64,000 nucleotides of DNA. Source: a virus (taxonomy: Duplodnaviria > Heunggongvirae > Uroviricota > Caudoviricetes). Both the position numbers and the translations under genes were made by a program. The notes beneath the pieces were generated by a model. That model saw only the letters and a list, made by a program, of their open reading frames with translations. It ran no database searches and was not told the origin of the DNA. Location of the stretch: the IMG/VR virus record IMGVR_UViG_3300035208_005614, positions 1-64,000 of that record. One strand, written 5' to 3'. Positions 13,936-63,180 of the stretch are shown piece by piece. Numbering within the stretch: position 1 is the first letter of the stretch; each line of letters opens with the position of its first letter.

Positions 13936-14250
13936 TTATTGGTATCTTGCGATACATTCCTGTATCATTTTACTCTTATAATTTTCGTCTTCGCACTGTT
14001 TTTTTGCCTCAGTATTTGTGATCGATCCACAAATATCTGAATCTTTTCCTGTATCAACCACAGGTTCATCTGGTTCTGGAATATATGCTACTGCGGTCTG
14101 ATTAAATCCACTAACTTTGGTTGATGTAGTAGTCGAATTTGCTTTATTTTTTGCTCTAGCACTTTCAATACTCGCCATCACTACTGATGAAAAAATACCT
14201 ATAATTGCTATTACAACCAACATTTCTATTAACGTAAAACCTTTTTTCAT
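13936..14250 (-). CDS. Type IV pilin-like protein (prepilin N-terminal cleavage/methylation domain)
   Basis: N-terminus MKKGFTLIEMLVVIAIIGIFSSVV is the class-III signal (G|FTLIE) followed by a hydrophobic helix. Confidence 0.7.
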   Translation of the reverse strand: MKKGFTLIEMLVVIAIIGIFSSVVMASIESARAKNKANSTTTSTKVSGFNQTAVAYIPEPDEPVVDTGKDSDICGSITNTEAKKQCEDENYKSKMIQECIARYQ

Positions 14251-14646: not shown

Positions 14647-15159
14647 TTAATCTCCCCACGAACCTGAATCACTACTTGAATAACTATCGCTACCCCATGA
14701 TCCTGAATCACTTCCCCAAGATCCTGAATCGCTACTTGAATAGCTATCGCTACCCCATGATCCTGAATCACTACCCCACGAAGTATCGTCTACTGCACTA
14801 CTTTCGTCTCCCCAACTTCCCCAAAAACTATCGTTTGACTTACTTCCACTTCCCCAAGATCCAGAATTACTATCTGAATTACTTGTTGTTTGACTAGGAG
14901 CAGAATCACGATAGGTAGTATTATTGTAATAAGTATTACCTCTTGATCCTCCAAAAAGCCACATCCAGAAAAACGGTTCATACGAGTTGTTCTGCGGTTG
15001 CGATTGAACAACGACATTTGTCGTTGTTCCTGCAACTGTAGTGGAAGAAACATTCTTAGCCGCCTTAAACATCGGAACGAAAGCTAGTACAAGAAATATT
15101 GCGACTAGAATAGAACCGATAACTAAGATTGCCTGTAAATTTTTATGTCTTTCCCACAT
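14647..15159 (-). CDS. Membrane-anchored protein with a Ser/Gly/Trp/Asp-rich repeat tail
   Basis: N-terminal TM segment (ILVIGSILVAIFLVLAFVP). C-terminal SGSWGSDS repeats are encoded by a 57-bp tandem DNA repeat at about 14650-14790. Confidence 0.55.
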   Translation of the reverse strand: MWERHKNLQAILVIGSILVAIFLVLAFVPMFKAAKNVSSTTVAGTTTNVVVQSQPQNNSYEPFFWMWLFGGSRGNTYYNNTTYRDSAPSQTTSNSDSNSGSWGSGSKSNDSFWGSWGDESSAVDDTSWGSDSGSWGSDSYSSSDSGSWGSDSGSWGSDSYSSSDSGSWGD

Positions 15160-15163: not shown

Positions 15164-16081
15164 TTATTTTAATTGGATTACTGGAATCGTGTTTCCTCCC
15201 ATCATCGTTGATGGATAATGTCCGTCCCATTGCTTGATTGCTTGTAATGCTACGTAATCAGCTCCTCCTTGTGAGTTTATAGCTTGTGCTGAAATTCTTA
15301 TCGCTTCTGCATCTGCTTTTGCTTTTTCTACTGTTTGCTGTGCTTCATATTGAACTTGAACTAATTTGTTCTTTTGAGCTTCAGCGTCTTGAACTGCTGT
15401 AACTTTAGCTTCAATTGATTTGCTAAATGCATCTGAGAAAGCAAAGTTTGTAACTGAGAATCTTTCCATAACTGCATTCTTTTCAACAAATTGTGTTGCA
15501 AGTAAAGCATTTACTTTGTCTGAGAATTCTGCTCTTTTTGTAACCAATTCTTCTGCTGTGTATTGAGCTGATGTAGATTTAACTATTTCTCTAATCATCG
15601 GTTCAATAACATTTGCTTGATAATTCTCTACTGAACTATATTGAGAGAATATTTCTGTTACTTTTGTTGCATCTACGTGATAATTTACAACTACTCCAAT
15701 TGCTACATCCTGAAGATCTTTTGATGCTCCAAAAAGATTTGTAGATTGATTTTTCTCATCTCCTGTATCTCCGCTCTTATCGTAATCAATTGTTTGAGTC
15801 TTAACGCTCATCAAATGAATTGATTCTAACCATGGGAGTTTGAAATAAAGTCCTGGTTGAACTGTACCTACTACCTTACCTAGATTTGTTTTAACTCCTA
15901 CTTCTCCAGCACTAACTGTACCAAATGATCCGAAGATTGTTGGTAATGCGATAAATAAAGTAATAAAAGCAATTGCTATATGTGTAATAACTTTTGCTAG
16001 ATCTACTTCAGTACCGTAATCTGTTTTCATTGAATAATCGAACATTCCTCTTTTTTTATTTTCCATTTTTATATTTTTCAT
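15164..16081 (-). CDS. SPFH/band-7 (prohibitin/HflKC-like) domain membrane protein
   Basis: N-terminal TM (IAIAFITLFIALPTIF) followed by GEVGVKTNLGKVVGTVQPGLYFKLPW, a band-7-like core, then a long A/Q/E-rich coiled-coil tail. Confidence 0.7.
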   Translation of the reverse strand: MKNIKMENKKRGMFDYSMKTDYGTEVDLAKVITHIAIAFITLFIALPTIFGSFGTVSAGEVGVKTNLGKVVGTVQPGLYFKLPWLESIHLMSVKTQTIDYDKSGDTGDEKNQSTNLFGASKDLQDVAIGVVVNYHVDATKVTEIFSQYSSVENYQANVIEPMIREIVKSTSAQYTAEELVTKRAEFSDKVNALLATQFVEKNAVMERFSVTNFAFSDAFSKSIEAKVTAVQDAEAQKNKLVQVQYEAQQTVEKAKADAEAIRISAQAINSQGGADYVALQAIKQWDGHYPSTMMGGNTIPVIQLK

Positions 16082-16312: not shown

Positions 16313-16367
16313 TTTTAATAAAATTATTCGTGAGAAAAAATGACTAGTTTCTTCTCTAACTCAGCCA

Positions 16368-16395
16368 AGTATACTCCTTTCAAAATACTTGTCAA
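16368..16395 (-). promoter_or_regulatory. Sigma-70-like promoter TTGACA-N16-TATACT (copy 3, leftward)
   Basis: Minus-strand reading cTTGACAagtattttgaaaggagTATACTtgg, in the divergent region. Confidence 0.65.
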
Positions 16396-16407
16396 GTAAA
16401 AAGAAGA

Positions 16408-16436
16408 TTTACTTTCATTTAGTACTGTGGTATGAT
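16408..16436 (+). promoter_or_regulatory. Rightward promoter with an extended -10 box
   Basis: TTTACT-N17-TGgTATGAT on the plus strand, about 30 nt upstream of the 16468 gene and back to back with the 16368 leftward promoter. Confidence 0.45.
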
Positions 16437-16467
16437 GTATAAATTACTAGTTATAATATAAAATAAT

Positions 16468-16743
16468 ATGGATAAAATCTTTAGCACACGTGATCTTTAC
16501 TTAGCGGCGACTCTAGTTAGCCTTAAATTCTATCTAACAGGAATTGACTACCAAATAGAGGGAGAAAAAAACCTACCTATAGGTTATTTTAAGTTTGAAG
16601 ACACAAAAGAGATACAAGAAGCCAAATCTAAATACACCCAAGGATTATTGATGGTTGAACCTAAATCGTTCATCACTAATTTAAAAAGTTTAAAAAGCGA
16701 GATAGTTAATATTTATAAAAATCCTCATAATTTTGGTAAGTAA
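16468..16743 (+). CDS. Hypothetical protein
   Basis: 91-aa ORF, first gene of the rightward block. Confidence 0.45.
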   Translation: MDKIFSTRDLYLAATLVSLKFYLTGIDYQIEGEKNLPIGYFKFEDTKEIQEAKSKYTQGLLMVEPKSFITNLKSLKSEIVNIYKNPHNFGK

Positions 16744-16782
16744 ATTATAGTTCTTTTTACGCAGTTATTGTTTATTTTTTGT

Positions 16783-16836
16783 TTCTATGTTGTAACATAG
16801 AAATGTCTTTGACATATTAAGAAAAAGGAATATTAT
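16783..16836 (+). promoter_or_regulatory. Operator-like palindrome plus sigma-70-like promoter upstream of the replication genes
   Basis: Palindrome TTCTATGTT-GT-AACATAGAA (16783-16802) followed by TTGACA-N16-TATTAT (16809-16836). Confidence 0.5.
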
Positions 16837-16875
16837 TGTCGTATATGGGAAAATTTGATACCAAAATTGTTGAAC

Positions 16876-16945
16876 AAAAAGGTATATCCATAGCATCGAA
16901 AGATGCCGAGTCGTCAATCACTCGCCCATGTGGATATACCTTTTT
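16876..16945 (+). other. Long hairpin (15-bp stem, about 40-nt loop) followed by a T-run, in the leader of the replication initiator gene
   Basis: AAAAAGGTATATCCA (16876-16890) pairs with TGGATATACCTTTTT (16931-16945). A CATC-GAAA-GATG mini-hairpin sits in the loop. Could be an attenuator or an origin-associated stem-loop. Confidence 0.4.
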
Positions 16946-16979
16946 GCTTCGCAATTTTATTAATTAATGGGAAAAAACA

Positions 16980-17858
16980 ATGAAATATAATATCAATATA
17001 AATCAAAAAGCATTGAGCGAATTAAGCGACGATATGGACGTCTTAGATGCCTCTATTTTGGTTTATATTAATGATATTTGTGGCAGTGGCAGTGAAAAAA
17101 TACACAGTAGAAGATTTAAGGATGAAAACGGTATATTTTGGACATGGGTTGATCTACAAACCTTATGCGACGATATGCCTCTTCTTCGTATTGGATCTAG
17201 ATCAGCTATTTCAAATAGAATCAAAAGAATAGAAAAAAACGGTTTTATTTCTACTTTAACAAGAATGGTGGATCGTCATTCTCGTTTATTTATAAAGCTA
17301 AATGACAAGGTAGATAATCTCACGTTCGTGGAAAAGAACGTGTCAGTTGTTGACACGTTCTCCAAAACAAACGTGTCGAGGGGGGACACGTTCTGTTTGG
17401 AGAACGAGCACGTTCTCCTAGAAGAACGTGTGGAGGATTCACACGTTCTCCAAAACGCACGTATTATAGATACTAGTAATACAATACATAATAATACTAC
17501 TTACTCTGTGCAAAAAGGGAGGACGAGGAAAAAAGACATTCCTATGGATTCTGATAGGTTGTCTCTATTCAACGACTTCTGGGCAGCGTTTCCGATTAAG
17601 AAAGGGAAACAACTTGCGGAAGCACGTTGGAAAGAAATTGATATTGCCATAATGCCAATGATTATCGAGGATGTAAAAAAGAAGAGCATAAAGGATGATC
17701 AATGGATTAGAGGGTACGCTCCCCATCCCCCAACTTATTTAAATCAAAAACGATGGACAGACGAAATTGATCCCCCCAAGACGACAGCCCCTAAACTAGC
17801 TCCAGGAAATACTTATACAAAAGGAAAAATGAAAGATGTCGAAGAATTAATTGTTTAA
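16980..17858 (+). CDS. Putative replication initiator/replisome organiser carrying an internal origin-like palindrome array
   Basis: 292-aa ORF immediately upstream of the DnaC-like and primase-helicase genes. No closely recognisable domain. It contains a DNA palindrome array (see the repeat feature), as in the lambda O gene and its origin. Confidence 0.5.
   Translation: MKYNININQKALSELSDDMDVLDASILVYINDICGSGSEKIHSRRFKDENGIFWTWVDLQTLCDDMPLLRIGSRSAISNRIKRIEKNGFISTLTRMVDRHSRLFIKLNDKVDNLTFVEKNVSVVDTFSKTNVSRGDTFCLENEHVLLEERVEDSHVLQNARIIDTSNTIHNNTTYSVQKGRTRKKDIPMDSDRLSLFNDFWAAFPIKKGKQLAEARWKEIDIAIMPMIIEDVKKKSIKDDQWIRGYAPHPPTYLNQKRWTDEIDPPKTTAPKLAPGNTYTKGKMKDVEELIV
17321..17448. repeat. Array of five palindromes built on GAACGTG/CACGTTC half-sites (origin-like iterons)
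   Basis: CACGTTC-8-GAACGTG (17321-41), GAACGTGTC-8-GACACGTTC (17335-60), AACGTGTC-7-GACACGTT (17370-92), GGAGAACG-AGCA-CGTTCTCC (17399-418) and GAACGTGTG-7-CACACGTTC (17424-48), all inside the 16980-17858 reading frame. Confidence 0.7.
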
Positions 17859-17877: not shown

Positions 17878-18429
17878 ATGAAATTAGATTACACAAAAAT
17901 AATACCGAGGAGATACCACGACGTTTCATATGAAAATGACGTTACGGATGTGGTGAAAGGAGTAGTTAAGGAACAGATTCAAAAAAGAGACGGTTTATAT
18001 ATCCGTGGAGATGTAGGAGTAGGGAAAACTCACTTGGCCTGTGCTTTAGTTAAAAAATTTATAGAGGAGGGTCTTGATGTAAGGTTCTATAACACAAGTG
18101 ATTTTTTAGAGAGACTTAGAGACGAGTTTAAGAACGGAGTTATTACCGATGAGAGTTCTGAAGGGTTATTCAGAGATACGATGAATTATAAAGGGATTCT
18201 TGTTTTAGACGACATAGGGACAGAGAAAGTGACCGATTGGGTCAACGAAAGACTTTATCTCATTATAAACAAAAGATATGAGGATATGCTTCCCACGATT
18301 TTTACTTCAAATTGCGATATGGAAACCTTTTCAGCGAGATTAGGAGATCGATTTTCATCTAGAGTAAAGCAAATGACTAGAATTATTAACCTTGTCCACT
18401 CAGACAGAAGATTAACTCCAAAACTCTAA
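17878..18429 (+). CDS. DnaC/IstB-like helicase loader ATPase
   Basis: Walker A RGDVGVGKTHLA, Walker B ILVLDDIG and sensor TSN. 183 aa. Confidence 0.8.
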   Translation: MKLDYTKIIPRRYHDVSYENDVTDVVKGVVKEQIQKRDGLYIRGDVGVGKTHLACALVKKFIEEGLDVRFYNTSDFLERLRDEFKNGVITDESSEGLFRDTMNYKGILVLDDIGTEKVTDWVNERLYLIINKRYEDMLPTIFTSNCDMETFSARLGDRFSSRVKQMTRIINLVHSDRRLTPKL

Positions 18430-20192
18430 TGAAAACTATAAATGAAAAATTGTTAAATTTCGCGTTAGAGTCTCTTAAAAAAGGAATTTCAGTTATTCCT
18501 GTAGGTAAAAACAAAATTCCGCTTTTATCATGGAAAGTTTATCAAACTCGTTTCGCGTCAGAAGAAGAAGTTAGAGGATGGTTCGAAGGATATGACGATC
18601 CTCAAATAGGTTTTGTTACAGGAAAGATATCAAATCTTCTGGTTATTGATATTGAAAAAGGAGGGGATCCTAGTTTTCTTCCACAAGATACAACGATAGT
18701 TCACACGGGAGGAGATGGATATCATTACTACTTTAAATTTGAAGATGGAATTATGAATAAGGCTAGAATCAAACCCCTTATAGATTGGAGAGGAGAAGGA
18801 GGTTATGTAGTTTCACCGTATTCAGTTTCAGAAAAAGGACCCTATACGATTCTTCAAGACTTGCCATGGTTACCATTTCCTAAGGAATTATTTCCGCCTA
18901 AAGTAGATATTTTCCAATCCCCAGGATTGAATAGCGCCAGAGTTTTTGAAAGAAGACCGATCGTTGAATACCCAGGTTATGGAACAGGACAAAGAAATGA
19001 TCAGATGGCGAGATACATTGGTTATTTGTTAACACAATTACACCCTGCAGATTGGGATACCCAAGGTTGGAATATTATTTTAACTGCTAATCAAAAAAAT
19101 ACACCGCCATTAGCACAAAATGAGCTCCTTACAACGTTTAATAGCATAAAAGGTGTTGAGAGACGTAATAACCCATTCGGGCGCGCTGGCGGGGCAAATA
19201 CCTCCCAAAACACGTACGCTTCAAGCACTTTTCAAGAGAACCCAGTAATTCTAAATGATGGAAGTGACGAAATTAAACATCTTGCCGAAGTTGCCGATGA
19301 ACAGGTTATAAATCAAGAAGATATTTATCCACTTCAAATGAAATGTTTTGATGATGTTATTTTAGGAGGAGTCTGCCCTGGAGATCTTGTTGTTATCGCA
19401 GGACAGTCGGGACATGGAAAAACATCTCTTGCACAGGACTGGACACTTTCTTTTGTCCGTGGTGCAAAAAAGGCAAAGAGCCTTTGGTTCTCTTATGAAG
19501 TTTTACCAACCCACTTGTGGAAAAAGTTTCAAGAAATGGGAATGAGTAGAGAAGACTGCGTTTTTATTCCCTCAAAGAACACTTCGGGTAATGTCGCTTG
19601 GGTAGAACAAAAGATCAAGGAAGGTAAGGAAAAATTTGGAATCAAGGTAGTTATGATCGACCACTTAGGGTTTCTATTACCCAAGACAAATGGCACTTTA
19701 GGAATGAAAAATATGTCAAGCAATTACTCAACATTTTTGACACAGGTTGTGAGAGATTTGAAGACTATAGCTTTGAAGGAAGAAGTTATAATCTTTTTGC
19801 CAGTTCACATGAGAAAGGCGGAGAAAGGAAATAGAAAATCTGATATTGATGATATTAAAGATTCTTCTGGTGTAGCACAGGAATCAGATCTAGTATTTTT
19901 AATTGAAAGAGAAAAAAATAAAGATACAAATGCAAGGTCATATTTTACAGATAAAACCAAAATTACTTTAGCTAAGAATAGAAAAACTGGAACAACTATT
20001 ATTGGGAACTTCTCTATGGTTAAAGGAAGATTCGCTTATGACGATACTTATGACAAGAATTTAGAAGCTTTTGAGAAATTTGGAGAAGAAAAACCTCCAG
20101 AACCAGTAAAGGTCGCAAGATATTACGATACTCCCGATAGTGAGATAGACGAAGATATCACTTGGGAGAGAACTAAAGAAGTAGAAGAATAA
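18429..20192 (+). CDS. Primase-helicase (N-terminal bifunctional prim-pol domain plus C-terminal DnaB/RepA-like RecA-fold helicase)
   Basis: N-terminus ISVIPVGKNKIPLLSWKVYQ...LLVIDIEKGG...HTGGDGYHYYF...GGYVVSPYS matches the primase/polymerase N-terminal domain. C-terminus has GDLVVIAGQSGHGKTSLA (Walker A) and VVMIDHLGF (Walker B). Confidence 0.8.
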   Translation: MKTINEKLLNFALESLKKGISVIPVGKNKIPLLSWKVYQTRFASEEEVRGWFEGYDDPQIGFVTGKISNLLVIDIEKGGDPSFLPQDTTIVHTGGDGYHYYFKFEDGIMNKARIKPLIDWRGEGGYVVSPYSVSEKGPYTILQDLPWLPFPKELFPPKVDIFQSPGLNSARVFERRPIVEYPGYGTGQRNDQMARYIGYLLTQLHPADWDTQGWNIILTANQKNTPPLAQNELLTTFNSIKGVERRNNPFGRAGGANTSQNTYASSTFQENPVILNDGSDEIKHLAEVADEQVINQEDIYPLQMKCFDDVILGGVCPGDLVVIAGQSGHGKTSLAQDWTLSFVRGAKKAKSLWFSYEVLPTHLWKKFQEMGMSREDCVFIPSKNTSGNVAWVEQKIKEGKEKFGIKVVMIDHLGFLLPKTNGTLGMKNMSSNYSTFLTQVVRDLKTIALKEEVIIFLPVHMRKAEKGNRKSDIDDIKDSSGVAQESDLVFLIEREKNKDTNARSYFTDKTKITLAKNRKTGTTIIGNFSMVKGRFAYDDTYDKNLEAFEKFGEEKPPEPVKVARYYDTPDSEIDEDITWERTKEVEE

Positions 20193-31652: not shown

Positions 31653-34600
31653 TTATTCGTTAGCTAAAATAGGTAATCCTCTCACAGTACCCCATTTTGT
31701 TTTTACTCCTTTGATCTGTTTCTCATGAGCATTAGCTGCTTTCTTTGCTTCATCCTGCGTACTGCCTAACCATAGAGATCCATCAGAGGCGTGAACATAA
31801 AAAGTTTTACCTCCCGTTGTATCATTAAACTTTCCTGACTTCATCTCATTAAGAGCGTCTTTAATCGCTTGAAGTTTTTTGTTATCAGTTGTGTTGATTA
31901 ACCCTGCTTTTAGTTTTTGATATTCACTTTGCTTAACTTTTCCATTACTAGAAGTTGCTCCTTGTGGTGCATAAGCCTGGTATTGATATGGAGCTTGTAG
32001 AACCTTAGTTAAAGAACCTTGATACCTATCAGGATCGTTTACAGCTCTATTAATAGCTGTGTTTATAATATGTTTAGTCTCAAAAGCTTGTTTGTCGGGT
32101 CTGTTACTTACTTCTCCATAAAGAATTGCAGCAGCCTCATCTATATCGCTATCCTTTACTTTAATTCCTCTTACATCATAAGTAGGTTCTTCTTTTGCTC
32201 TAAAAGTTGTAGTCAATCCTGGAAGTAATTTTTCTTTAACATTTCCCCAAGCATTAGAAATGCCAGTCCCTATGTCATCCATAAGACCCCCCTGTCCATC
32301 TGGACCTCCCTTACCTTCTTTTACTGTTTCTACTACATTCTGTGCGCTTGGAGTAATAACTTGAGAAAACGGATCAAATGATTCAGACCCTTGGTAATAA
32401 GTATTTGCTACTTTAGGAGAAGCATCTATTAATTCTCTATAAAGATAGATAAACTTCGGTTTATTATATATTTCTGCCCAAGATATATTTGCCAACTTAT
32501 CTGTTGCTGCCCAATATGAAATATTATCTAGATCAGCTTCTGTGTAATTACCTTCTTCTAAATTCTTAAGGAAGTAATTCTCAACTCTTTGTTTTGCTTT
32601 TTCTCTTATAGTTTTTCCTTCCTTCCCTGGGTTTGTTTGATATTCTAATTTAGCTTTTTTAGCAATACTAATAATATCCTTTAATTTTGAATTATTAGGA
32701 TTGTATTTATCTTTAAATGCTTGAGAAACAGCTTTTGCTCCTTCTTTGTGTATAATAACTTTTTGTTCTCCAGTAACATCATAAGACTTTAATTTTGAAG
32801 CAGCGAGTGTCTTTTCTTGTAATGGAGTTAATACAGTTCCTGCTTTTTTAAGGTTATTGTAATATTCGATAGTAGGAGCTAAACCTGTTTGTTTGATTCT
32901 TTGATTAGTTTTAGCATCTACTTTGCCTAGGAAAATATCATTAACTGTGTTTGCAGTCTCTCCAAGCGCTTTAATACCATAAGGTTTTTGTATATTTTTA
33001 AGAGCCCCAGTTAATGAAATTGGGTTAAGCGTTTCTCCACTATTAACGCTCCAAAGTTCTTTAGTAGCCCAGTTAGGATCGTCATTTGTTCTTTTAAGAA
33101 TATCGTCAGATTTCTTTGAGTCTACAGCTTCTCTTTGCGCCTGAGAAATCAATTGTCTTTCTTTTGTTCCCCATTTTGGAGTTGCAGTAAAATCCTCCTT
33201 AGAATTATAAGTAGTTCCTTTTTCTACAACATTGCCGTTAGAAAGTATTTCGTACTGACTGTATTTTTTAGGATCAGATTCTCCATAAACCTTGATAGTA
33301 ATATTATTATCTTTTACCTCATCCATAATACGTGAAGCCATGGAAATCATACTTGTTTGGTCATCTCCAACAAGTTGATTTTTTATAACTTTTTTAATAG
33401 TTTTATTTGTAGCAAGTTCAGGTGTGGATGATTTAACTTCAGTAAATGGAGTAGCTAGAGATCCTCTTTTAACGATAGCATCGACTTCGGCTTGTGACAT
33501 CCCACCTTCGCCTATTTTAGTTACGTGCATAGTATCAGCATCTTGATCTCCTTGTAGAATAATTCTTTCATTGAATGGGCTAACAATACCGTTCTCTTCT
33601 GCGAGACTTGTGTTACCTGATTTTGTACCGTCTACAACTCTAAGAACAGCAAGGTTGTTAATATCATAAGAAGGATCTCTACTTACAACTACGTAATCAC
33701 CTTCTTTAACTCCGAGACTTTTAATTTGCTCAGATCCTAAAATTATTTCGTGGTTATTGACATATCTAGTTTTTCCTGTTCCATCATAATCAGCCTTAAT
33801 AGGAGCAACCATCGTTACCATTGTACTATTTTTATAAGTAGGGTTTATTGCATTCTCCATAACTAAATTCTTTAGTATTTTGTTTATTTCAAAATGAAGA
33901 TTGTTTTTTGCAGCACTTAATTCTCCGAAAGATAATTGTTTAGCTCCTTGGAATAGATTCTCTTTTTCTAATTGAGGATATTTTTCAACTGCTTTATCAA
34001 ATACTTCTTTAAGCTCAGCATTGCTTTTTGTTTTTGCTATATCATCTATAAGAGTCTGTAGATCTTTAACGTCCTGATTAACTTTAATAAGTTTATTTTC
34101 AGATACACCAACATCAGTACTTAAGAATTTTCTTTCTCCAGAAGGAGATATTTTACTAACACTTCCTGTAGTTGATCTGTCTTTGCCATAAATATCAGAA
34201 AGAGGAAGATTAAAATCTCCGAGTTTTGGACCTATTTTAGCATTAGAATCAAAACTGATTACATCATTTTTACCAATTTCAATACCGTGAGTTTCTTTAT
34301 AACTATTTCTAATTGCCTCATCAGCTTTAATGGCCTGGCCTTTGTGATAAGATTTTTCTCCATTAAGAGTTGTATCAAGAATTATTTTAACAGATCCTTT
34401 ATGTCTATTTTTATCATAACCTAAACCTTCTATAAGTTTGTCAAAAGCATCCTCTCCAAGGATAAAAGGACCGTCTTGTGTCTTACCTCCGTGAAATGAT
34501 TCTACAGAAGCTTTTGCTTCTACCCCCTCTGGATTTTCAAACTTACTTGTATCTATTTTAAATTCTGGTGTATCACCTATAGTTTCAGCTTTAAGTGTTC

Positions 34601-37600
34601 TTAGTCTTGCTGTCTGTTCAGGACCTAGGTACTGATCATATCTATGAAAAATAAGATTAGCTCTTTTAACAAAATCTACATCTTTAATATTTTTAGGCAT
34701 TCCAAGAACATCTACCATGTAGACTCTTGTAAATTTATCTTCTGGAGTAGTCAAAGTTTCGCCTTCGTTCTGATATTTTGTAGGATTTTGATCATACTTT
34801 TCAACCATCTTAGGTTCCATCTTGACAAAGACAGTATTTTCTATTCCTTTACCTGTAATTCCAATTGGAACAAAACTTTTATTTCTCATTTCATCTGTCA
34901 AAGTATTTAAAGCATTGCTACTTTTTTTAACGTAAGATTTGTCTCCTCCTGAATAATCGTTATCCTTTCCAACATGAACCACCTCCATTGAGTTCTCTGG
35001 AAGTCCATTAGCTTTATTAAAATCTTTTGTAAGTAAATCAATCTTTCCTACATTTTGTGTTCCACCTTCTTTAAGTTGCGCTTTACCGTCAGAAATAATA
35101 ATCTCATTTCTTGCTCCTGAACTTGCAAGTGTAGTATAAAGATTCTTAAGATCTCTCAAATCTCTCTTATCTGATATTTCAAAGGCATCATTTCCACTAG
35201 CTGTTTTAATTTTTTGTGTGAAATCGTTTAAGAAAGTTGGCCATCCATCAATAATCCCTTGTCTTGTTTCTCCGTTACCAGATACTGACTTAGCAACTTC
35301 AGTTAATTTAGCGCGTGTGAAATCACTTCTCTTTTTAGGATCTGAAATTTCTTTAAGAGCAACTTCGTTGATTCCTTCCTTTCCTCTTCCTGTTTGTTTA
35401 AATTGTCCAGGATCAGCTCTTTCAGGGGCTTTTTCTATAGTGTCTAGAGCGCTTTGTACGTTAGTTTCAGCAACGGGTAGTGTATTCGCTTCATTAAGTG
35501 TTTTAGACATCTCCTGTGCCGTTTTTGGGGCTTCTGTAGGCTTAATTATAGGCAATTCAGCATCAGAAAGTGACTTAAATGATGTATCTGTAGTTTTAGG
35601 CGCCACTTTAGCTTTTTTGATCATGTCAATAAGTCTCTGACTCATTCCTTGTTTCTTCAATTGTGCAATCTCTTCTGGGGTAACTTCTGGTGTAACATTA
35701 GAAACTGGTAACGGTCCTTTTTTACTTCTTTCCATATAAGAAATCTGATCAGAAGTAAAACCTTGTTTTTTTAATGACTGTACTTCCTCTTCAGTAAATT
35801 CTTTAAGTGGAGTAGAAACTTTTTCTTGAATATTACTTATAGCACTAGACACCTGTTTTTTAATAGGTTCAAATGATTTACCTTTAAATGCAATACTTTC
35901 TGCCCAATTCTCGGGTTTAATATTGACAGCCAAGAAATATTCTCCTGACTTATTGCTTTTAGTTAGTTTAGATTGGTTAGCAGTTAGAACAGATAAACCG
36001 TTGTCTCTCATTGCTTGAGCAATTTTTGAGTTATTTAAATTTGAATCAAATTTTTGAAGAGGATTTTCTGCCTTGATTCTAGTAAGAAGAGTTTTGTTAT
36101 CTATTTTTGATAAATTTTCTGCGAATAAAATATTTGCTTCTTCTTGAGTTAATGAAGGTTTAGATTGATCTTTAAGAAGATTATCATAAAATTCTTGAGG
36201 TGTTTTTGACGCCTTTCTTATTTGTCTGATTCTATTCATCATTGATCTGAAATTCTCGTTGAAGTTGAATTTTCTTGTATCAATTCTTTCTCCTGTAGAT
36301 GCGTAACCAACTTCTCTTATTTGTCTTCCATTAGGTGTTTCTGCAATATAAAAAGTTCTGATTGTATCCTCGGGTTTAGCAATAGGAGCAGGTCTACCTT
36401 GAGATAACTCAGCGAAGTTTATAACCCTTGACACTCTTTCATTTTTTGGATCTAATACAAAGTAAAGTTGGTCAGAGTGTTGTTCTCCTTTTACTCCTTT
36501 ATCATAAGCCCCTATATTAATACTATTTTTTGCACTTATTCCTTTTGCGTTTCCAGTTATTGGAATATCTCCTGTAGGTAAGTTACTTAAATCTGCAGTT
36601 ATTTCAGGAGCAGGTTGTATATCAAGAGGAACTGAATTTAATATATCTGAATAATCTCCAGCAGGTTCTGGTCTTAAATTATTTTTAGATGGAGAAATTT
36701 TACTCTTCATTTGAGTAACTAAAGATTGAAGATCTTGAATTTCTTTTTGTTCTCTTGCACTAGGTTTGATATTTGGATCTGTTGTGACTCCATATGTCTG
36801 TGTTCCAGGATCTAATGTTCTGTTATAAAGTTGGTTTCCTGCTGTGCCGAAACCTAGAAGTTCTGCGTCTATATCTTCTTGAGAAAAATCATTACCTGAA
36901 GCGCGAGCTTCTGATATAATTTTTCCATATCTATTTATTGCTACTCTAGTTATTAACTGTGTGACATCCTCCTGAGTTTGAATTGGCATTCTAGAAATAC
37001 TTGGATCGTTTGGATTTTCTTTAAGAAATTGCTGTCTAAAGTTTTCTGCCGTAGGTATATCATATTTAGTTTGAGCGATAGGAGTTTCTCCTTTCATAAC
37101 TGCAGGAACTAATTCAGGAACAACAGAATTCATTCTTGCTGATGCCATTTTGAATGCTTGATCTGAAGCGATTGTCTTTAATCCTTGATTTACACCAAGA
37201 GTTGCACCCCCTGCTTCGAATTTACCTGGAGCCCCCATCATGTGAAGAGCCGACATTAAAGCTCCTTGTTTAAGAGCTTCTTGTATTGAATTTTCTTTAT
37301 TACCACCAAGAATAAGAGAAAGAGTAGTTGCACTTAATCCAACTCCGAGATATCCCTTGATGCTTTGTCCATATCCTGCTGTAAGTCCTCCGAATGCAGC
37401 ATCTGAGAAGAATTGACTCATGTGAGCTCCCAAATCTGCTTCTTCTTGACCAGTTAATTGCCTTCCAGTTTGTCCTATTTGTCCCCACGTTCCTAGAAGA
37501 CCCGCACCTTTAAGCATTTCTGCTGCTTGTTTTTTCCAAGCGATATTTCCTACTGTTTCTGTCCCAGCGTCTATTATTGCTTTCTTTGTTACGAGACCTG

Positions 37601-38825
37601 CAGTATCCATAGCTCCTTCAGCCATAGTAACGGCTTTTGCTGCATTAACAGCTCCTCCGAAAATTCCATCATATTCAAGAATTGGAACGGCCGCTGCTTT
37701 TGCTGCGCCTCCCATAAGACCAAGAGCTCCGAGTCCTTTCCCAACTAAACCTATACCTGTCATCATACCGACGATATTACCAGCTAAGTTAGTTACTTTT
37801 CCGAGGGTTCCAGATGATTCACTTGCTCCTGTTCCAGGGGCAATTCCTGCAGTAGCTCCTCCGACTAATCCTTTTGCAAACTCTCTAATTGGATCTGGCA
37901 ACCATCCTTCTCCGAATTGATCCATATTTTCTTTGAATGATTCTCCGAAATATTTCAATGCTCTTTTATCAAAAATTCCTACAGGTTTGCTAATTGCATC
38001 CTTCCATTGTTGTGCATATTTTTCTGCGACTTTAGTATCTAAATAACCTTTGTCATTAACTAGATTAATATCTGGAGCATCATCAACGTTTGTTTTCCAG
38101 TTTAAAGCCATCGCTTTTGCTTCGCTCTGAGTTATTTTTCCATTAGCAAGCAATGTTAAAGGAACTGCTTGTATAGCAGTTTTTTTGTCGTGAGATACAT
38201 TATCAAAAACTTCAAGATTTTTTAGTGTGTCTGCTCCACCTGCCCATAAAGGGACGATGTGGTCTACTTGGAATAAAGCAGGAGACAAATTACCGAGAAC
38301 TTGCTGTTTAACTCCTGGATTTATTTTATTATCCATGATTACACGATCAGATTTAATTAGTTTTCCAGGTTGAGTTGGATCAACAACATATTGTCCTCCC
38401 CCCATTGAGAGAGGAAGATTTCTAGCGACAACGGCAGATGATGGTGTAACCCAATTACCATTTGCATCTGGAGCAGTAAATTGACTATATCCTTCAGGTA
38501 AAGATTCTGTTGGAGTAAAAGTTGATGGAGCTACATAACCTGGAGCATAAGGAACAACTGGTGTCGGTTCTTTAAAAGCTTCTGTTATAGGAACTCCTAT
38601 AGGAAAATTATAATCAGTTGGAGCTTTTGTTGTTTTCGTTTTTCCTGTACCAAAAATAGCACCATAATCTGATACATTAAAGTGTGAATCTAGAGATCCT
38701 TTTACCACACTTGACGAAGTCTTCTGTGCGTTTTGTTGTAATTGTTTAGTTAAACCAGAAAGATTCGCAATTGATGGTTGCGAGCTAGGAGTACCATATT
38801 GCGTATTTTCAGGTAAATTAGCCAT
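31653..38825 (-). CDS. Giant tape-measure-like virion protein (2390 aa) with an N-terminal HNH-like motif and a C-terminal SleB-type cell-wall hydrolase domain
   Basis: Gly/Ala-rich hydrophobic tracts (GIGLVGKGLGALGLMGGAAKAAA...) as in tape-measure proteins. DHIVPLWAGGADTLKNLEV...H fits an HNH nuclease motif near residues 185-225. The C-terminus NRAVNDPDRYQGSLTKVLQAPYQYQAY...FYVHA resembles the Hydrolase_2 (SleB/CwlJ) domain. Confidence 0.65.
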   Translation of the reverse strand: MANLPENTQYGTPSSQPSIANLSGLTKQLQQNAQKTSSSVVKGSLDSHFNVSDYGAIFGTGKTKTTKAPTDYNFPIGVPITEAFKEPTPVVPYAPGYVAPSTFTPTESLPEGYSQFTAPDANGNWVTPSSAVVARNLPLSMGGGQYVVDPTQPGKLIKSDRVIMDNKINPGVKQQVLGNLSPALFQVDHIVPLWAGGADTLKNLEVFDNVSHDKKTAIQAVPLTLLANGKITQSEAKAMALNWKTNVDDAPDINLVNDKGYLDTKVAEKYAQQWKDAISKPVGIFDKRALKYFGESFKENMDQFGEGWLPDPIREFAKGLVGGATAGIAPGTGASESSGTLGKVTNLAGNIVGMMTGIGLVGKGLGALGLMGGAAKAAAVPILEYDGIFGGAVNAAKAVTMAEGAMDTAGLVTKKAIIDAGTETVGNIAWKKQAAEMLKGAGLLGTWGQIGQTGRQLTGQEEADLGAHMSQFFSDAAFGGLTAGYGQSIKGYLGVGLSATTLSLILGGNKENSIQEALKQGALMSALHMMGAPGKFEAGGATLGVNQGLKTIASDQAFKMASARMNSVVPELVPAVMKGETPIAQTKYDIPTAENFRQQFLKENPNDPSISRMPIQTQEDVTQLITRVAINRYGKIISEARASGNDFSQEDIDAELLGFGTAGNQLYNRTLDPGTQTYGVTTDPNIKPSAREQKEIQDLQSLVTQMKSKISPSKNNLRPEPAGDYSDILNSVPLDIQPAPEITADLSNLPTGDIPITGNAKGISAKNSINIGAYDKGVKGEQHSDQLYFVLDPKNERVSRVINFAELSQGRPAPIAKPEDTIRTFYIAETPNGRQIREVGYASTGERIDTRKFNFNENFRSMMNRIRQIRKASKTPQEFYDNLLKDQSKPSLTQEEANILFAENLSKIDNKTLLTRIKAENPLQKFDSNLNNSKIAQAMRDNGLSVLTANQSKLTKSNKSGEYFLAVNIKPENWAESIAFKGKSFEPIKKQVSSAISNIQEKVSTPLKEFTEEEVQSLKKQGFTSDQISYMERSKKGPLPVSNVTPEVTPEEIAQLKKQGMSQRLIDMIKKAKVAPKTTDTSFKSLSDAELPIIKPTEAPKTAQEMSKTLNEANTLPVAETNVQSALDTIEKAPERADPGQFKQTGRGKEGINEVALKEISDPKKRSDFTRAKLTEVAKSVSGNGETRQGIIDGWPTFLNDFTQKIKTASGNDAFEISDKRDLRDLKNLYTTLASSGARNEIIISDGKAQLKEGGTQNVGKIDLLTKDFNKANGLPENSMEVVHVGKDNDYSGGDKSYVKKSSNALNTLTDEMRNKSFVPIGITGKGIENTVFVKMEPKMVEKYDQNPTKYQNEGETLTTPEDKFTRVYMVDVLGMPKNIKDVDFVKRANLIFHRYDQYLGPEQTARLRTLKAETIGDTPEFKIDTSKFENPEGVEAKASVESFHGGKTQDGPFILGEDAFDKLIEGLGYDKNRHKGSVKIILDTTLNGEKSYHKGQAIKADEAIRNSYKETHGIEIGKNDVISFDSNAKIGPKLGDFNLPLSDIYGKDRSTTGSVSKISPSGERKFLSTDVGVSENKLIKVNQDVKDLQTLIDDIAKTKSNAELKEVFDKAVEKYPQLEKENLFQGAKQLSFGELSAAKNNLHFEINKILKNLVMENAINPTYKNSTMVTMVAPIKADYDGTGKTRYVNNHEIILGSEQIKSLGVKEGDYVVVSRDPSYDINNLAVLRVVDGTKSGNTSLAEENGIVSPFNERIILQGDQDADTMHVTKIGEGGMSQAEVDAIVKRGSLATPFTEVKSSTPELATNKTIKKVIKNQLVGDDQTSMISMASRIMDEVKDNNITIKVYGESDPKKYSQYEILSNGNVVEKGTTYNSKEDFTATPKWGTKERQLISQAQREAVDSKKSDDILKRTNDDPNWATKELWSVNSGETLNPISLTGALKNIQKPYGIKALGETANTVNDIFLGKVDAKTNQRIKQTGLAPTIEYYNNLKKAGTVLTPLQEKTLAASKLKSYDVTGEQKVIIHKEGAKAVSQAFKDKYNPNNSKLKDIISIAKKAKLEYQTNPGKEGKTIREKAKQRVENYFLKNLEEGNYTEADLDNISYWAATDKLANISWAEIYNKPKFIYLYRELIDASPKVANTYYQGSESFDPFSQVITPSAQNVVETVKEGKGGPDGQGGLMDDIGTGISNAWGNVKEKLLPGLTTTFRAKEEPTYDVRGIKVKDSDIDEAAAILYGEVSNRPDKQAFETKHIINTAINRAVNDPDRYQGSLTKVLQAPYQYQAYAPQGATSSNGKVKQSEYQKLKAGLINTTDNKKLQAIKDALNEMKSGKFNDTTGGKTFYVHASDGSLWLGSTQDEAKKAANAHEKQIKGVKTKWGTVRGLPILANE

Positions 38826-52467: not shown

Positions 52468-55400
52468 TTAAAAGAATCCTGCTATCTTGCCTACAGGTTT
52501 TGAATCTCGACCTTGTCCTACAAGTTTAACACTAGTACCTCTTCCTACAGGTTGCATCTTGTTTCCCTGTGCAACTGGTTTACTATCTGAAGGTGAAAAT
52601 CTGAATGATTCTGAAACAATTGATTCTGAGATGTTTATTTGATCTAAAACACTTATATCATAATAAAAACCTAATCTTATATCAGAATCAATCTCAATTT
52701 CATCAAAAACATTAATATCTCCAAGTTGTCCGTTATTTTCAACATTCTCTGAAATTTCTATATTTTCTGCTACTTGTATTCCAGTAAGAAGTAAATCTAC
52801 CAATTCAATATCCGATATTGAGATTGAATCGTATATATTTATATCTCCAAGTTGTGGGTTAGAAAGGATTACATTTTCTGAAATATTTATACCGTCAGAG
52901 ACGTTTATACCTCCAAGTAGAGGGTTCTCCTGATTATCGGTATCCAAAACATTGACAGAATCTGAGACATTAATTCCTCCCAAATAAGAATTACCCAAGA
53001 TAATATTTTCTGAAATCTCAACCAAATCTTTTACTGAGATCTCTTGTTCTCCTGTATCTTGGAAATTTTCAGAAATATTTATCGTATCAAAAATGTCGAT
53101 TCCTCCTAATTGAGAATTTTCTACAGTTACTTCTTCAGAGATCTCAATTGAATCGTATTTGTCTATACCTGACTCCAAATAATCAACTATTCCGATATCA
53201 TCAGAAACATTAATATCTCCTAGCTGAGAATTTTCTAAAGTAACCGATTCAAGAATATCAATAAGATCAAATACAGAGACTTCTTGTTCTCCTGTATCTT
53301 GGAAGTTTTCAGATATATTGATTATGTCGTTGACAGAAACATTCAATTCTCCTGTATTTGTAATATTTTCTGAAATATTTACATTATCAACAATATTTAT
53401 ATCTCCTAACTGAGAATTATTTATATTTAAATATTCAGATATGTTTACAATTTCTATAATATTTATAGATCCTAATTGCGAGTTACTTAATGCTACATTA
53501 TCTGAAATATTTATAGAATCAGTAGCAAAAATATTTCCAAGTTGAGTTCTTATGACCAAATCTTCTGAAATATTTATAGAATCAGTAGTAGAGATATCTC
53601 CTAACTTGGAGTTATCCAATACGACTTCTTCTGTAATATGAATCACATCGTCAACAATAATAATGAGACTTCCTCCACCTGTGCCGAAATCAACAATATC
53701 TACTTCATCTGAAACGTTGATTCCTCCTAGTTGAGAATTTGAAACGATGACTGACTCTGAAATATTTACTGTATCTATTACTGAAGTGCTTAATATCCCC
53801 GCGTCTGTAAAGTTTTCTGAAATATTTATGTTGTCTACAACAGAAATATCCCCTAACTGTCCAGTTAGATTTACATTTTCAGATATATCTATTGTGTCGT
53901 AAACACTTATTCCTCCTAGATTTGAGTTAGAAACGGTAACTGATTCAGAAATGTTGACTGAGTCTGAAACGTTAATACCTCCTAGATTTGAGTTAGAAAC
54001 GGTAACTGATTCAGAGATATTTACTGAGTCTGAGACGTTGATACCTCCTAGATTTGAGTTAGAAACTGTAACTGATTCAGTGATGTTTATTGAATCGTAT
54101 ACTGAAATATTCTCTTCTCCCATATCTACGACATTTTCTGATATATTGATGGTGTCAAAAACTGAAGTATTCAATACTCCTGTGTCTGTAAAGTTTTCAG
54201 AAATATTTATCGTGTCATAGATATTAATATTTCCTAGTTGTGAGTTTAGAACAATTACTGATTCTGAGATATTGATGGTATCAAATACTGAAGTATTCAA
54301 CACTCCTGTATCCGTAAAGTTTTCTGAAATATTTACTGTATCCGAAAGATTAATATCTCCTAACTGAGAGTTTGAAATGGTAATTGTTTCTGAGATATTT
54401 ACTGTGTCAGAAACATCAATGTTACCCAACTGAGAGTTTGAAATAGTAACTGACTCAGAAATGTCCACTGTGTCATAAACATTTATATCACCTAATTGAG
54501 AGTTTGAAATAACAACTGACTCTGAAATATTTATTGTGTCAAAAACTGAGATAGAACTGAATCCTGTATCTGTAAAGTTTTCTGAGATATTTATTGAATC
54601 TGAGACATTAATATCTCCAAGATTTATAGAGGAATTGGTTGATTCTGAAACATTAATTGAATCATAAACATTAATAGTTCCTAGTTGAGTATTCGTGACT
54701 ATAAATGATTCTGAGATATTTACTATATCTATTATATTAATTTCTCCAAGAGTAGTTGAAGAAATAATTGATTCTGAAATATTTATTGTGTCTGATACGT
54801 TTATGTTTCCTAGTTGAGAATTTGAAATTACAACTGACTCTGAAATATTTATGGTATCTATTACTGAGGTACTTAATACACCTGTATCTGTAAAGTTTTC
54901 TGAAATATTTATTGAATCTGAAACATTTATGTCTCCTAGTTGAGAGTTTGAAACAGTAGTTAATTCTGAGATATTTATAGAATCATATACATTAATTTCT
55001 CCTAATTGAGAGTTTGTAAGTGTAACTGATTCAGATATGTTTATAGAATCATATACGTTAATTCCTCCTAGCTGAGAATTTGAAACAACAACCGATTCAG
55101 ATATATTAACTAAATCAACAACTGAAATATTTGAGACTCCAGTATCTGTAACATTTTCTGAGATGTTTATTGAATCTACAACGGAAATATCTCCTAACTG
55201 ACCAGTTAGACTGATACTTTCAGAGAAATTTATTGAATCAAAAACGTTGATATCACCTAACTGAGAGATTGAAACTATGACTGATTCAGAGATATCTACT
55301 AAGTCTGAAACGTTGATACCTCCTAGATTTGAGTTAGAAACTGTAACTGATTCAGAGATATTTACTGAATCCGAAACGTTGATGTTTCCTAGACTTGAAT

Positions 55401-61584: not shown

Positions 61585-61656
61585 CATAGTACTAGCTCTT
61601 CGAGTAGGATTCGGACCTACGATCTATCGCTTAACAGGCGATGGCTTTACCACTAA
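61585..61656 (-). tRNA. tRNA-Asn (anticodon GUU)
   Basis: Hand-folded cloverleaf: acceptor TCTTCGA/TCGAAGA, D GCTT/AAGC, anticodon stem ATCGC/GCGAT with loop CUGUUAA, T-arm GTAGG-TCCGAAT-CCTAC. Coordinates within about 2 nt. Confidence 0.75.
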
Positions 61657-61661
61657 GCTAT

Positions 61662-61732
61662 CGAAGAATATGCTGGGGAAGATGGAATCGAACCACCATT
61701 AATCGCTTCAGAGGCGATCTTACTACCTTTAT
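61662..61732 (-). tRNA. tRNA-Gln (anticodon CUG)
   Basis: Acceptor TGGGGAA/TTCCCCA, anticodon stem ATCGC/GCGAT with loop CUCUGAA, T-arm GGTGG-TTCGATT-CCATC. Confidence 0.7.
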
Positions 61733-61750
61733 AAGATTCCCCAATTTGTA

Positions 61751-61822
61751 CTTTCTAACTGCTGGGGATCTTGGGTTCGAACCAAGCTACACGGCTTCAA
61801 GGGCCGTTGAACTACCAACTAT
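61751..61822 (-). tRNA. tRNA-Gln (anticodon UUG)
   Basis: Acceptor TGGGGAT/ATCCCCA, D GAAT/GTTC, anticodon stem ACGGC/GCCGT with loop CCUUGAA, T-arm CTTGG-TTCGAAC-CCAAG. Confidence 0.8.
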
Positions 61823-61835
61823 TCTAATCCCCAAT

Positions 61836-62198
61836 TTACCATTTTTTACCTTTTTTTCTAGCAGTTAATCTCCACTTTTTTCTAACCTCATTATAAGCAT
61901 TCATACAAAGTCTACATCTACATTTATGATGTCTATACATTGAATACATTCCATGTTTTGATTCCCCGTTATCAATCTTATTCTTTTCTTTGTGACATAT
62001 ATGACAAAGTAATTGACACTTAGAAACTTCTAATAAAACTTTTTGTATAGAATAAGACCATTTTTCTGTTATGGTAAATTTTTTTGTTTTAGGATCAATA
62101 TGATCAAACTCTAATCCTTCTTTACTTCCACAAACAACACATTTTCCTCCTAATAATTCTATTAATAAACTAATTCTTTTTTTATAATGTCTTATCAT
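61836..62198 (-). CDS. HNH endonuclease embedded in the tRNA array
   Basis: CVVCGSKEGLEFDHIDPKTKKF...LLCHICHKEKN is a canonical HNH pattern (C..C...DHI.P.....N..LC..CH..K). Confidence 0.6.
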   Translation of the reverse strand: MIRHYKKRISLLIELLGGKCVVCGSKEGLEFDHIDPKTKKFTITEKWSYSIQKVLLEVSKCQLLCHICHKEKNKIDNGESKHGMYSMYRHHKCRCRLCMNAYNEVRKKWRLTARKKGKKW

Positions 62199-62313
62199 TA
62201 GTATATCCTACCATAATACTTTAAAATGTCCTACCCTGCGGGCCGAGAAGGACTTGCACCCTCATTTTCCGCTTTGGAGACGGAAGTGTTTCTATTACAC
62301 TATCAACCCAATG

Positions 62314-62386
62314 GGTAACTATTGGGAATTGAACCCAACCTAAGAGTTTCACAAACTCCTGTGCGAACCGATACACTACAGTCACC
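62314..62386 (-). tRNA. tRNA-His (anticodon GUG) with an encoded G-1
   Basis: Extra 5' G opposite the C73 discriminator, acceptor GTGACTG/TAGTTAC (two G-U pairs), anticodon loop UUGUGAA, T-arm TTGGG-TTCAATT-CCCAA. Confidence 0.75.
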
Positions 62387-62389
62387 ATG

Positions 62390-62473: not shown

Positions 62474-62477
62474 ATTG

Positions 62478-62551: not shown

Positions 62552-62555
62552 CCTG

Positions 62556-63176: not shown

Positions 63177-63180
63177 TTGG

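Follow-up and report, generated by a model that had tools for sequence, protein, structure and literature searches.

A candidate replication origin inside the gene of its putative winged-helix initiator in an uncultured phage

Introduction

In phage lambda, the replication origin's iterons and its AT-rich tract lie in the middle of gene O (PMC7466680). In plasmid pSK41, the Rep boxes are central in rep: Rep attaches to four such boxes through its N domain (~120 amino acids [aa]) and uses its C domain to recruit a replication protein, and the linker encoded by the boxes is dispensable (PMC5703833). [quoted passage not shown] Here we describe a locus of this kind in a 64,000-nucleotide (nt) stretch of phage DNA (IMG/VR record IMGVR_UViG_3300035208_005614, positions 1 to 64,000; referred to here as the window), in which an open reading frame (ORF) of 292 codons at positions 16980 to 17858 contains five dyad-symmetric repeats followed by an AT-rich tract. 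The results presented below indicate that positions 17321 to 17501 are probably the theta-type replication origin of this phage, located inside the gene of the protein that would recognize it. The architecture is of a known kind and is built here on an undescribed initiator family. An initial annotation, made from the sequence alone, had considered the whole control region to be uncharacterized, which is true of the protein family but not of the architecture.

Results and Discussion

A phased array of dyads within the initiator gene

The repeats and the adjoining tract are located in the window as follows.

17321-17342, no strand: iteron 1, CACGTTC GTGGAAAA GAACGTG, 0 mismatches
17354-17375, no strand: iteron 2, CACGTTC TCCAAAAC AAACGTG, 1 mismatch, starting 33 bp after the start of iteron 1
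17387-17408, no strand: iteron 3, CACGTTC TGTTTGGA GAACGAG, 1 mismatch, starting 33 bp after the start of iteron 2
17409-17430, no strand: iteron 4, CACGTTC TCCTAGAA GAACGTG, 0 mismatches, starting 22 bp after the start of iteron 3
17442-17463, no strand: iteron 5, CACGTTC TCCAAAAC GCACGTA, 2 mismatches, starting 33 bp after the start of iteron 4
17462-17501, no strand: AT-rich tract, candidate DNA-unwinding element, 82% AT, directly after the last dyad

Exact CACGTTC/GAACGTG sites occur nine times in the window, and seven of these are within 17321 to 17448; over all 64 kb, 2.5 sites would be expected by chance, and a count of nine was reached in 0 of 100 shuffled sequences. When up to three mismatches were allowed, the 22-bp dyad CACGTTC-N8-GAACGTG had five matches in the window (0.6 expected), all of which were consecutive and none of which was outside 17321 to 17463. 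The start-to-start spacings of the dyads are all multiples of 11 bp. The array and its elements are not due to chance and are real in the sequence. The initial annotation had reported five palindromes of one half-site, ending at 17448. The sites are indeed present, but the count combined overlapping readings (two of CACGTTC-N8-GAACGTG and three of GAACGTG-N11-CACGTTC), which we reparsed as five 7-N8-7 dyads, and the array runs 15 bp further, to 17463.

The dyads (17321 to 17463) encode aa 114 to 162 of the protein. Each 22-bp step puts the following units into another frame, with the result that one DNA unit has two different translations: units 1 to 3 are read as TFVEKNV, TFSKTNV, and TFCLENE, and units 4 and 5, following the shift at iteron 4, are read as HVLLEERV and HVLQNAR. 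The repeats are therefore repeats of DNA and not of codons. Codon-level repetition, the counter-explanation named in the initial annotation, is effectively ruled out by this two-frame reading, which is found in the relatives as well as in the window.

A promoter-like sequence (TTCACA-18-TATTAT, 17438 to 17467, plus strand, 10 of 12 positions) shares sequence with iteron 5 and with the first part of the AT-rich tract. It could be a chance occurrence or could be tied to transcriptional activation of the origin.

Recurrence of the array in relatives

Relatives were gathered from IMG/VR and metagenomes and through look-ups of exact proteins. In 54 unique loci taken together, the core GTTC-N8-GAAC (≤1 mismatch) was found 131 times in the 250-bp linker zones, corresponding to a density of 9.7 per kb, compared with 0.31 per kb elsewhere (a 32-fold difference). 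Nearly all relatives, including those with a different C domain, carry two to five dyad units at the equivalent position in the gene, and successive units are spaced by 22 bp (29 cases) or 33 bp (29 cases), with 33-22-33 being the most common pattern. The family consensus is nnnGTTC-nnnAAAAC-GAACnnn; most centers are A-rich, and the bases flanking the core are lineage specific (CAC in the window; CCT, ACC, GCT, and others elsewhere). Given the spacings of 22 and 33 bp and the A-rich centers, proteins bound to the dyads would be on one face of intrinsically bent DNA. The core is kept across relatives while the encoded peptides differ, and in locus L022 identical DNA is read as LFVKLDG in one frame and as PVRETG in another.

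An AT-rich tract next to the array

According to nearest-neighbor energies, the tract at 17462 to 17501 (TATTATAGATACTAGTAATACAATACATAATAATACTACT) is the least stable 40-bp duplex of the initiator gene and is in the top 0.27% of the window. A candidate for the AT-rich unwinding element that the initial annotation had suggested looking for thus adjoins the array. The tract encodes a conserved peptide (IIDTSNTIHNNT; IIxTSNTIHNNT in the family). Among 13 relatives, codon identity was 92% in the tract, compared with 62% both in other equally conserved columns and at occurrences of these amino acids in the rest of the gene, in a comparison that takes no account of kinship among the 13. This conservation at synonymous sites suggests that the DNA as such is under constraint. 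In nearly all relatives read, including those with a different C domain, the array leads into an AT-rich tract; in distant relatives, the equivalent position is occupied by a different yet equally AT-rich tract with N-rich codons. An IMG/VR search with the DNA pattern of the AT tract returned no additional close relatives.

The initiator and its N-domain family

An AlphaFold (AF2) model of the 292-aa protein, built on 45 homologs, consists of two domains with predicted local distance difference test (pLDDT) values of >90 and a linker with values of <55 between them.

16980-17858, plus strand: initiator gene, 292 aa (N domain, linker, and C domain)
16980-17324, plus strand: winged-helix N domain, aa 1 to 115, AlphaFold model confident from approximately aa 9
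17325-17543, plus strand: disordered linker, aa 116 to 188, pLDDT <55
17547-17759, plus strand: helical C domain, approximately aa 190 to 260, confidently modeled

The array, whose dyads are largely inside this linker, and the AT-rich tract together make up the DNA that encodes it. In the model of the N domain, the recognition helix is at aa 74 to 86 and the wing is at aa 90 to 107. The best natural structural matches of the N domain (4pql, 5kbj, 4pt7, and 4pta) are plasmid initiators, with marginal scores that are slightly above those of MarR-type regulators. The winged-helix fold for which the initial annotation had proposed a search is seen in the model.

The protein matches phrog_270, annotated as "replication initiation protein" (E = 1e-19), and its C-terminal third matches phrog_9474 and phrog_9327, which are annotated as initiation or primosomal proteins. 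No Pfam family (E ≤ 0.1) and no NCBIfam model matched the protein, and PDB profile searches with the full-length alignment or with the N domain alone yielded nothing beyond marginal MarR/SarA winged-helix matches. More specifically, the Phage_rep_O N domain of lambda O had no Pfam or NCBIfam match, the RepA_N domain (PF06970) was found neither in this protein nor in 76 sampled members of the family, and the Rep_3 domain (PF01051; pPS10 RepA, RepE, and pi type) had no Pfam match. In place of the WH1-WH2 arrangement of Rep_3 proteins, the model has a single winged helix and an unrelated helical C domain.

In an exhaustive profile search, 3,069 clusters (50% identity) matched the N domain at E ≤ 1e-3, and 1,251 did so at E ≤ 1e-10. 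Among the best 150 matches, the domain was at or near the N terminus of proteins that were mostly ~230 to 350 aa long. Essentially no Pfam domains were detected in 76 sampled representatives of this family, and the N domain occurred in no cultured phage of INPHARED. We attempted to bridge to Pfam via distant relatives, but a second, word-indexed search gave only unannotated fragments. The domain, with its ~3,000 clusters and no Pfam model, may represent a major unrecognized initiator family of uncultured phages. The C domain, in contrast, is found in cultured phages of Xanthomonas, Stenotrophomonas, and Pseudomonas (34 to 54% identity over aa 178 to 288).

The first nine residues, MKYNININQ (16980 to 17008), are near-invariant in the 45 homologs, whose mean identity is only 24%. 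This segment is unstructured and of low confidence in the model, and its DNA is ~90% AT with a slightly elevated codon identity of ~77%; it might serve as a peptide motif in interaction or degradation, or act at the level of DNA or RNA beside the start codon. The recognition helix (S-x-x-L-T-P-R-I-K-K-I-E) is conserved, as is the GTTC/GAAC core of the dyads. An attempt to map recognition-helix residues onto the iteron flanks was abandoned, as flank specificity had no clean fit to single residues.

The replication operon

The genes and the intergenic region around the initiator gene are arranged as follows.

16313-16467, both strands: divergent-transcription point, with promoter-like sites in both directions
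16468-16743, plus strand: small ORF of 91 aa, DUF5659 (PF18903, E = 3e-6)
17878-18429, plus strand: IstB/DnaC-like AAA+ helicase loader, 183 aa (PF01695, E = 4e-18; phrog_50, E = 4e-42)
18429-20192, plus strand: PrimPol primase fused to a DnaB-family helicase, 587 aa (PF09250, E = 9e-19; PF03796, E = 3e-18; phrog_19 and phrog_239)

These Pfam and PHROG matches confirm the initial placement of the initiator ORF directly before a DnaC-like loader and a primase-helicase. The conserved order is the divergent-transcription point, the DUF5659 ORF, a leader of ~240 nt, the initiator, the loader, and the primase-helicase. At the divergent-transcription point, a strong leftward promoter-like site (TTGACA-16-TATACT, 16395 to 16368) and a rightward one (TTTACT-17-TATGAT, 16408 to 16436) were detected. 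The DUF5659 ORF is the first rightward gene past this point, and its position and orientation relative to the initiator are kept in L020, L022, L024, L106, L107, L108, and L110.

A Band_7/SPFH-like gene (15164 to 16081, minus strand; assigned by synteny, with Pfam Band_7 matches in L020, L022, and L106) adjoins the replication module. In L108, an HNH endonuclease ORF identified by Pfam (826 to 1167) is located directly upstream of the initiator and replaces the structured leader; in L105, an ORF in which HNH-like motifs were recognized by reading (1 to 402) does the same. These ORFs suggest insertion of a mobile endonuclease at that spot.

Comparison with described replicons

The locus resembles lambda in that the origin would be in the middle of the initiator gene, with dyad-symmetric iterons containing A tracts and with an AT-rich unwinding tract on one side (PMC7466680). 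As in lambda O, the iterons encode the linker that joins an N-terminal DNA-binding domain to a C-terminal domain for recruitment of the helicase-loading machinery, and the loader gene is immediately downstream. The number of iterons varies, as it does in lambdoid phages, and changes the length of the linker (4 versus 6 in Stx phages; 2 to 5 here). In contrast to lambda, no sequence similarity to O was found (there was no Pfam match at all), the units are 22 bp long (7-N8-7) and phased by 22 or 33 bp, and the phage encodes its own DnaC-like loader and PrimPol-DnaB fusion, whereas lambda hijacks the host DnaB via P.

The best natural structural matches of the N domain, at marginal scores, belong to RepA_N-type initiators (pSK41, pTZ2162, and Vibrio PLE RepA); the pSK41/pTZ2162 RepA N domain is a winged helix related to the N domain of DnaD. 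The protein has the three-part organization of pSK41 Rep, in which an N domain of ~120 aa binds the iterons, the origin encodes a linker, and replication proteins are recruited through the C domain (PMC5703833). Semi-palindromic direct repeats that converge on an A tract, are central in rep, and encode a linker are likewise common to this locus and RepA_N replicons, in which rep expression is controlled via a structured mRNA leader. The differences are that PF06970 does not match here, that the C domain is unrelated to the DnaG-binding domain of pSK41 Rep and is instead common to initiators of Pseudomonas and Xanthomonas phages, and that the setting is a large, virulent-looking phage instead of a plasmid.

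Among cultured phages, gp54 of Pseudomonas phage JBD68, annotated as a hypothetical protein, has a homologous C domain (34 to 54% identity over aa 178 to 288). Its gene likewise precedes an IstB-like loader and a DnaB-type helicase and has iterons 22 bp apart in its center, but the N domain is HTH_36 (PF13730) and the iteron sequence is ACGGGGTGCAA. Five ACGGGGTGCAA repeats with 22-bp spacing were found at the center of the gp54 gene (L120, 2807 to 2912), and their arrangement suggests that this cultured phage has an origin, so far unannotated, within the gene. The Xanthomonas phage homologs of the C domain are annotated as "primosomal protein I."

Promoter, palindrome, and leader RNA

Upstream of the initiator gene, the following elements were recognized.

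16782-16803, no strand: perfect palindrome TTTCTATGTT-GT-AACATAGAAA, 10+2+10, unique in the window
16809-16836, plus strand: sigma-70-like promoter TTGACA-16-TATTAT, 11 of 12 positions, for the leader and the replication operon
16863-16958, plus strand: structured leader RNA with three helices, 28-nt arms that are 86% complementary
16863-16892 with 16929-16958, plus strand: P1, outer stem, the upper part of which is followed by a U5 tract (16941 to 16945)
16893-16906, plus strand: P2, capped by a GAAA loop
16907-16924, plus strand: P3, followed by the joining strand CCCA (16925 to 16928)

The promoter was found as the initial annotation had given it, and relatives have TTGAC(A/T/C)-N17-TAnnAT at the equivalent place, as judged by reading the sequences. 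Weak promoter-like sites are present on the minus strand. The 9+9 palindrome reported earlier (TTCTATGTT-GT-AACATAGAA) is matched perfectly and extends to 10+2+10; it is one of approximately seven perfect palindromes with arms of ≥9 bp in the 64 kb. Its end is 6 bp upstream of the −35 hexamer, which makes a role as a candidate operator plausible. As a conserved operator it was rejected, given that the close relatives inspected have no equivalent conserved sequence and that the rest of the window shows no enrichment of the half-site. The operator function assigned to it in the initial annotation is unsupported.

Several small features flank or span the leader. The sequence ATGGGAAAA occurs twice, at 16845 to 16853, shortly past the predicted transcription start, and at 16967 to 16975, where, 5 nt ahead of the initiator ATG, it probably serves for ribosome binding. 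In L022 and L107, a TATGGGAAAA-like sequence is likewise kept past the −10 hexamer. The hairpin in the window is spanned by a short ORF of the leader that begins MGK... and whose end varies among relatives.

A hairpin had been described at 16876 to 16945. Its arms (16876 to 16890 and 16931 to 16945) are as reported, but the stem is longer (16863 to 16958) and encloses two inner hairpins. The minimum free energy of the leader RNA is −42.6 kcal/mol (z = −5.9 against shuffled sequences), and of 49 unique loci, 22 carry a very stable structure within the 149 nt that precede the start codon. In 21 of these 22 loci, the transcribed strand folds better than its complement (mean difference, 10.3 kcal/mol; Wilcoxon P = 2e-6); this advantage implies the use of G-U pairs and therefore indicates RNA. 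A single MAFFT alignment of all leader subfamilies misaligned P1, and a three-sequence seed with a covariance model was used instead. In the three-helix alignment of the window, L110, and L022, 18 of 35 pairs show compensatory changes and none is broken. Across six homologs, 92% of the cells are paired, compared with 71% for shuffled alignments and ~44% when the partners are slid, the contrast with the sliding control being inflated because the structure was derived from the alignment on which it was tested. Double changes are found in 24 of the 35 pairs, a number reached in none of 500 shuffles. The P2 stems, which are unrelated in sequence, are capped by GAAA, GUAA, or GCAA. The element starts ~25 to 30 nt after the −10 hexamer in the three loci read, and in the window and in three relatives, the upper part of P1 leads into a U tract.

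No Rfam 15 family matched the window or the loci of nine relatives at the gathering threshold, with only chance-level matches (E > 2) in 16700 to 17100, and the covariance model found no other copy of the motif in the window, even with filters off. The stem, which encloses a 36-nt branched insert, is not called a canonical intrinsic terminator by a terminator scanner; given the U5 tract after the upper stem, a role as an attenuator is possible. In position, the leader resembles the put RNAs of HK022, attenuators, and the pSK41 rep leader/RNAI, all being structured RNAs that are located downstream of an early promoter and ahead of the first gene and that have a stem and then a U tract. This likeness is one of position and general knowledge, and the three-way junction with a GNRA-capped P2 differs from the put fold and has no Rfam match.

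In L005, the covariance model detected a homologous copy of the motif (2527 to 2628, 41.9 bits) directly after a TATAAT and 1.7 kb from the L005 initiator; 12 nt further on, an unrelated 95-aa ORF begins, the first in a series of small genes. This copy indicates that the motif is a general feature of early operons in these phages. The motif is also missing from L105, L108, L026, and L027, close relatives that keep the array. Together, these observations argue for a promoter-proximal leader motif and not for a component of the origin, and the hairpin has accordingly to be removed from the replicon in which the initial annotation had included it. As judged from the sequences, the leader is likely a promoter-proximal RNA involved in attenuation, 5'-end protection, or antitermination; most likely, it acts as a leaky attenuator or as a protective structure at the 5' end and thereby limits or stabilizes expression of the initiator. 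A more far-reaching possibility, to which we give clearly less than even weight, is that it belongs to an undescribed class of promoter-proximal phage RNAs (a three-way junction with GNRA-capped P2) serving as a switch for initiator dose. As an attenuator/antiterminator or the target of a phage factor, such an RNA might set the timing of replication or the copy number and, as in L005, gate other early operons. Either way, the leader is a new motif supported by covariation and open to direct testing.

A model for initiation and its alternatives

The initial proposal of a lambda-like origin with iterons inside the initiator gene is upheld computationally by the location of the array and the AT-rich tract in the linker, by recurrence at 54 loci, and by the 22/33-bp phasing. 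In the mechanism that we propose, dimers of the N-terminal winged helix would bind the five 22-bp dyads. Steps of 22 and 33 bp, i.e., two and three helical turns, together with the A-rich centers would place these proteins on one face of bent DNA, where a wrapped complex like the lambda O-some could assemble on the array and strain the adjacent tract (17462 to 17501) until it opens. The C-terminal helical domain, tethered by the origin-encoded linker, would then recruit the DnaC-like loader and the PrimPol-DnaB helicase, which would prime synthesis and unwind the DNA. The operon would be transcribed separately, from TTGACA-16-TATTAT through the three-helix leader RNA.

Several points weigh against this model. 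Initiator binding, unwinding, and origin activity are all steps that we infer. The half-sites are ~15 bp apart from center to center, and no sequence-level homology to lambda O, RepA_N, or Rep_3 emerged from searches of Pfam, NCBIfam, and PDB profiles. The tract (82% AT) is only moderately extreme for a genome that is 67% AT, and shared ancestry and AT-biased codon use could explain part of its high codon identity. The cumulative GC skew does have its minimum at ~16.4 kb, within ~1 kb (to the left) of the array, but the change of sign coincides exactly with the switch in gene orientation; the skew is therefore not independent evidence for an origin, and we rejected it as such. Finally, a phage this large could have further origins outside the window.

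The dyads might bind the initiator for control only (autorepression, titration, or handcuffing), with strand opening at another origin. Plasmid iterons play both roles, and the N domains of RepA_N proteins form tetramers (PMC5703833). The promoter-like sequence that overlaps iteron 5 and the tract (17438 to 17467) would also fit such control, and the phage is large, with 64 kb examined. We nevertheless regard this explanation as unlikely, because a conserved, least-stable AT tract abuts the array in nearly all relatives read and because the array is within the replication operon, by the skew switch, with no second dyad array in the window. Repetitive-looking linkers in homologs (PVRETG twice, HVAV three times, and LVHENE twice) might be taken to mean that the repeats are protein-level (codon) repeats without a function in DNA. 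This explanation is effectively refuted, with a negligible probability left to it: one DNA unit is read in two frames per gene in the window and in relatives, the 22-bp spacing is not a multiple of 3, dyad symmetry is meaningless for a peptide and the region is predicted to be disordered, and the DNA core GTTC-N8-GAAC is kept where the peptides differ.

The array might instead be a partition (centromere-like) or packaging site bound by a winged-helix adaptor, as in TubR/tubC, ParR/parC, or the pac sites of small terminases. This is very improbable, given that the gene is co-oriented with and adjacent to the loader and primase-helicase genes in relatives with a recovered downstream flank, that the PHROG matches are to families annotated as replication initiation proteins, that the C domain is shared with cultured-phage initiators preceding a loader and DnaB, and that no partition NTPase or terminase gene is adjacent. 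Another alternative concerns the leader hairpin (16863 to 16958), which might act as DNA, i.e., as a single-strand initiation signal or as a cruciform that recruits the PrimPol-helicase. The stem is very stable, and the hairpin and the array are separated by ~360 bp. Single-stranded DNA also tolerates G-T pairs and C-GNAA-G loops, and the PrimPol-type primases of some plasmids recognize hairpin signals. Such a role is about as improbable as the control-only function of the dyads: the L005 copy follows a TATAAT and precedes an unrelated ORF, 1.7 kb from the initiator, the element begins ~25 to 30 nt past the −10 hexamer in the three loci read and has a U tract at its end in the window and in three relatives, array-keeping relatives (L105, L108, L026, and L027) lack it, and strand stability is asymmetric in favor of the transcribed strand in 21 of 22 loci.

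If 17321 to 17501 is indeed the origin, the locus provides a candidate origin and initiator, with exact predicted site coordinates, for widespread uncultured phages (~3,000 clusters at 50% identity) whose N domain has so far had no Pfam, NCBIfam, or cultured-phage annotation. Relatives can be searched for by a combination of an MKYNININ start, phased GTTC-N8-GAAC dyads, and an AT tract. The placement of an origin in the linker of its initiator would recur here with a third, sequence-unrelated DNA-binding domain. Modular swapping of C domains is found as well, and both support the view that initiator and origin travel as one cassette. The module at 16.8 to 20.2 kb is a candidate self-contained replicon for vectors in hard-to-work hosts.

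Phage context

The window is clearly of phage origin, encoding GroEL, an SNF2-type helicase, SbcCD, RecA, two giant ORFs, and 15 tRNAs. Assignment of a host was attempted and set aside: a scan of species genomes gave five contigs from metagenome-assembled genomes (MAGs) with mixed taxonomy, the sole long one (213 kb) being from a Candidatus Falkowbacteria MAG. The tRNA genes form a cluster (61595 to 63783, minus strand) comprising Asn, Gln (two), Trp, His, Leu (three), Thr, Phe, Cys, Tyr, Met, Ser, and Asp. The giant ORFs (31653 to 38825 and 52468 to 60510, minus strand) encode 2,390 and 2,680 aa, and several large ORFs near them had no PHROG match. To the left of the replication module, an ORF at 13936 to 14250 (minus strand) starts with MKKGFTLIEMLVVIAIIGI, an N-terminal signal of the type IV pilin/pseudopilin kind, and the ORF at 14647 to 15159 (minus strand) has a Ser/Gly/Trp-rich low-complexity repeat (GSWGSDSGSWGSDSYSSSDSGSWG) after a hydrophobic N-terminal segment.

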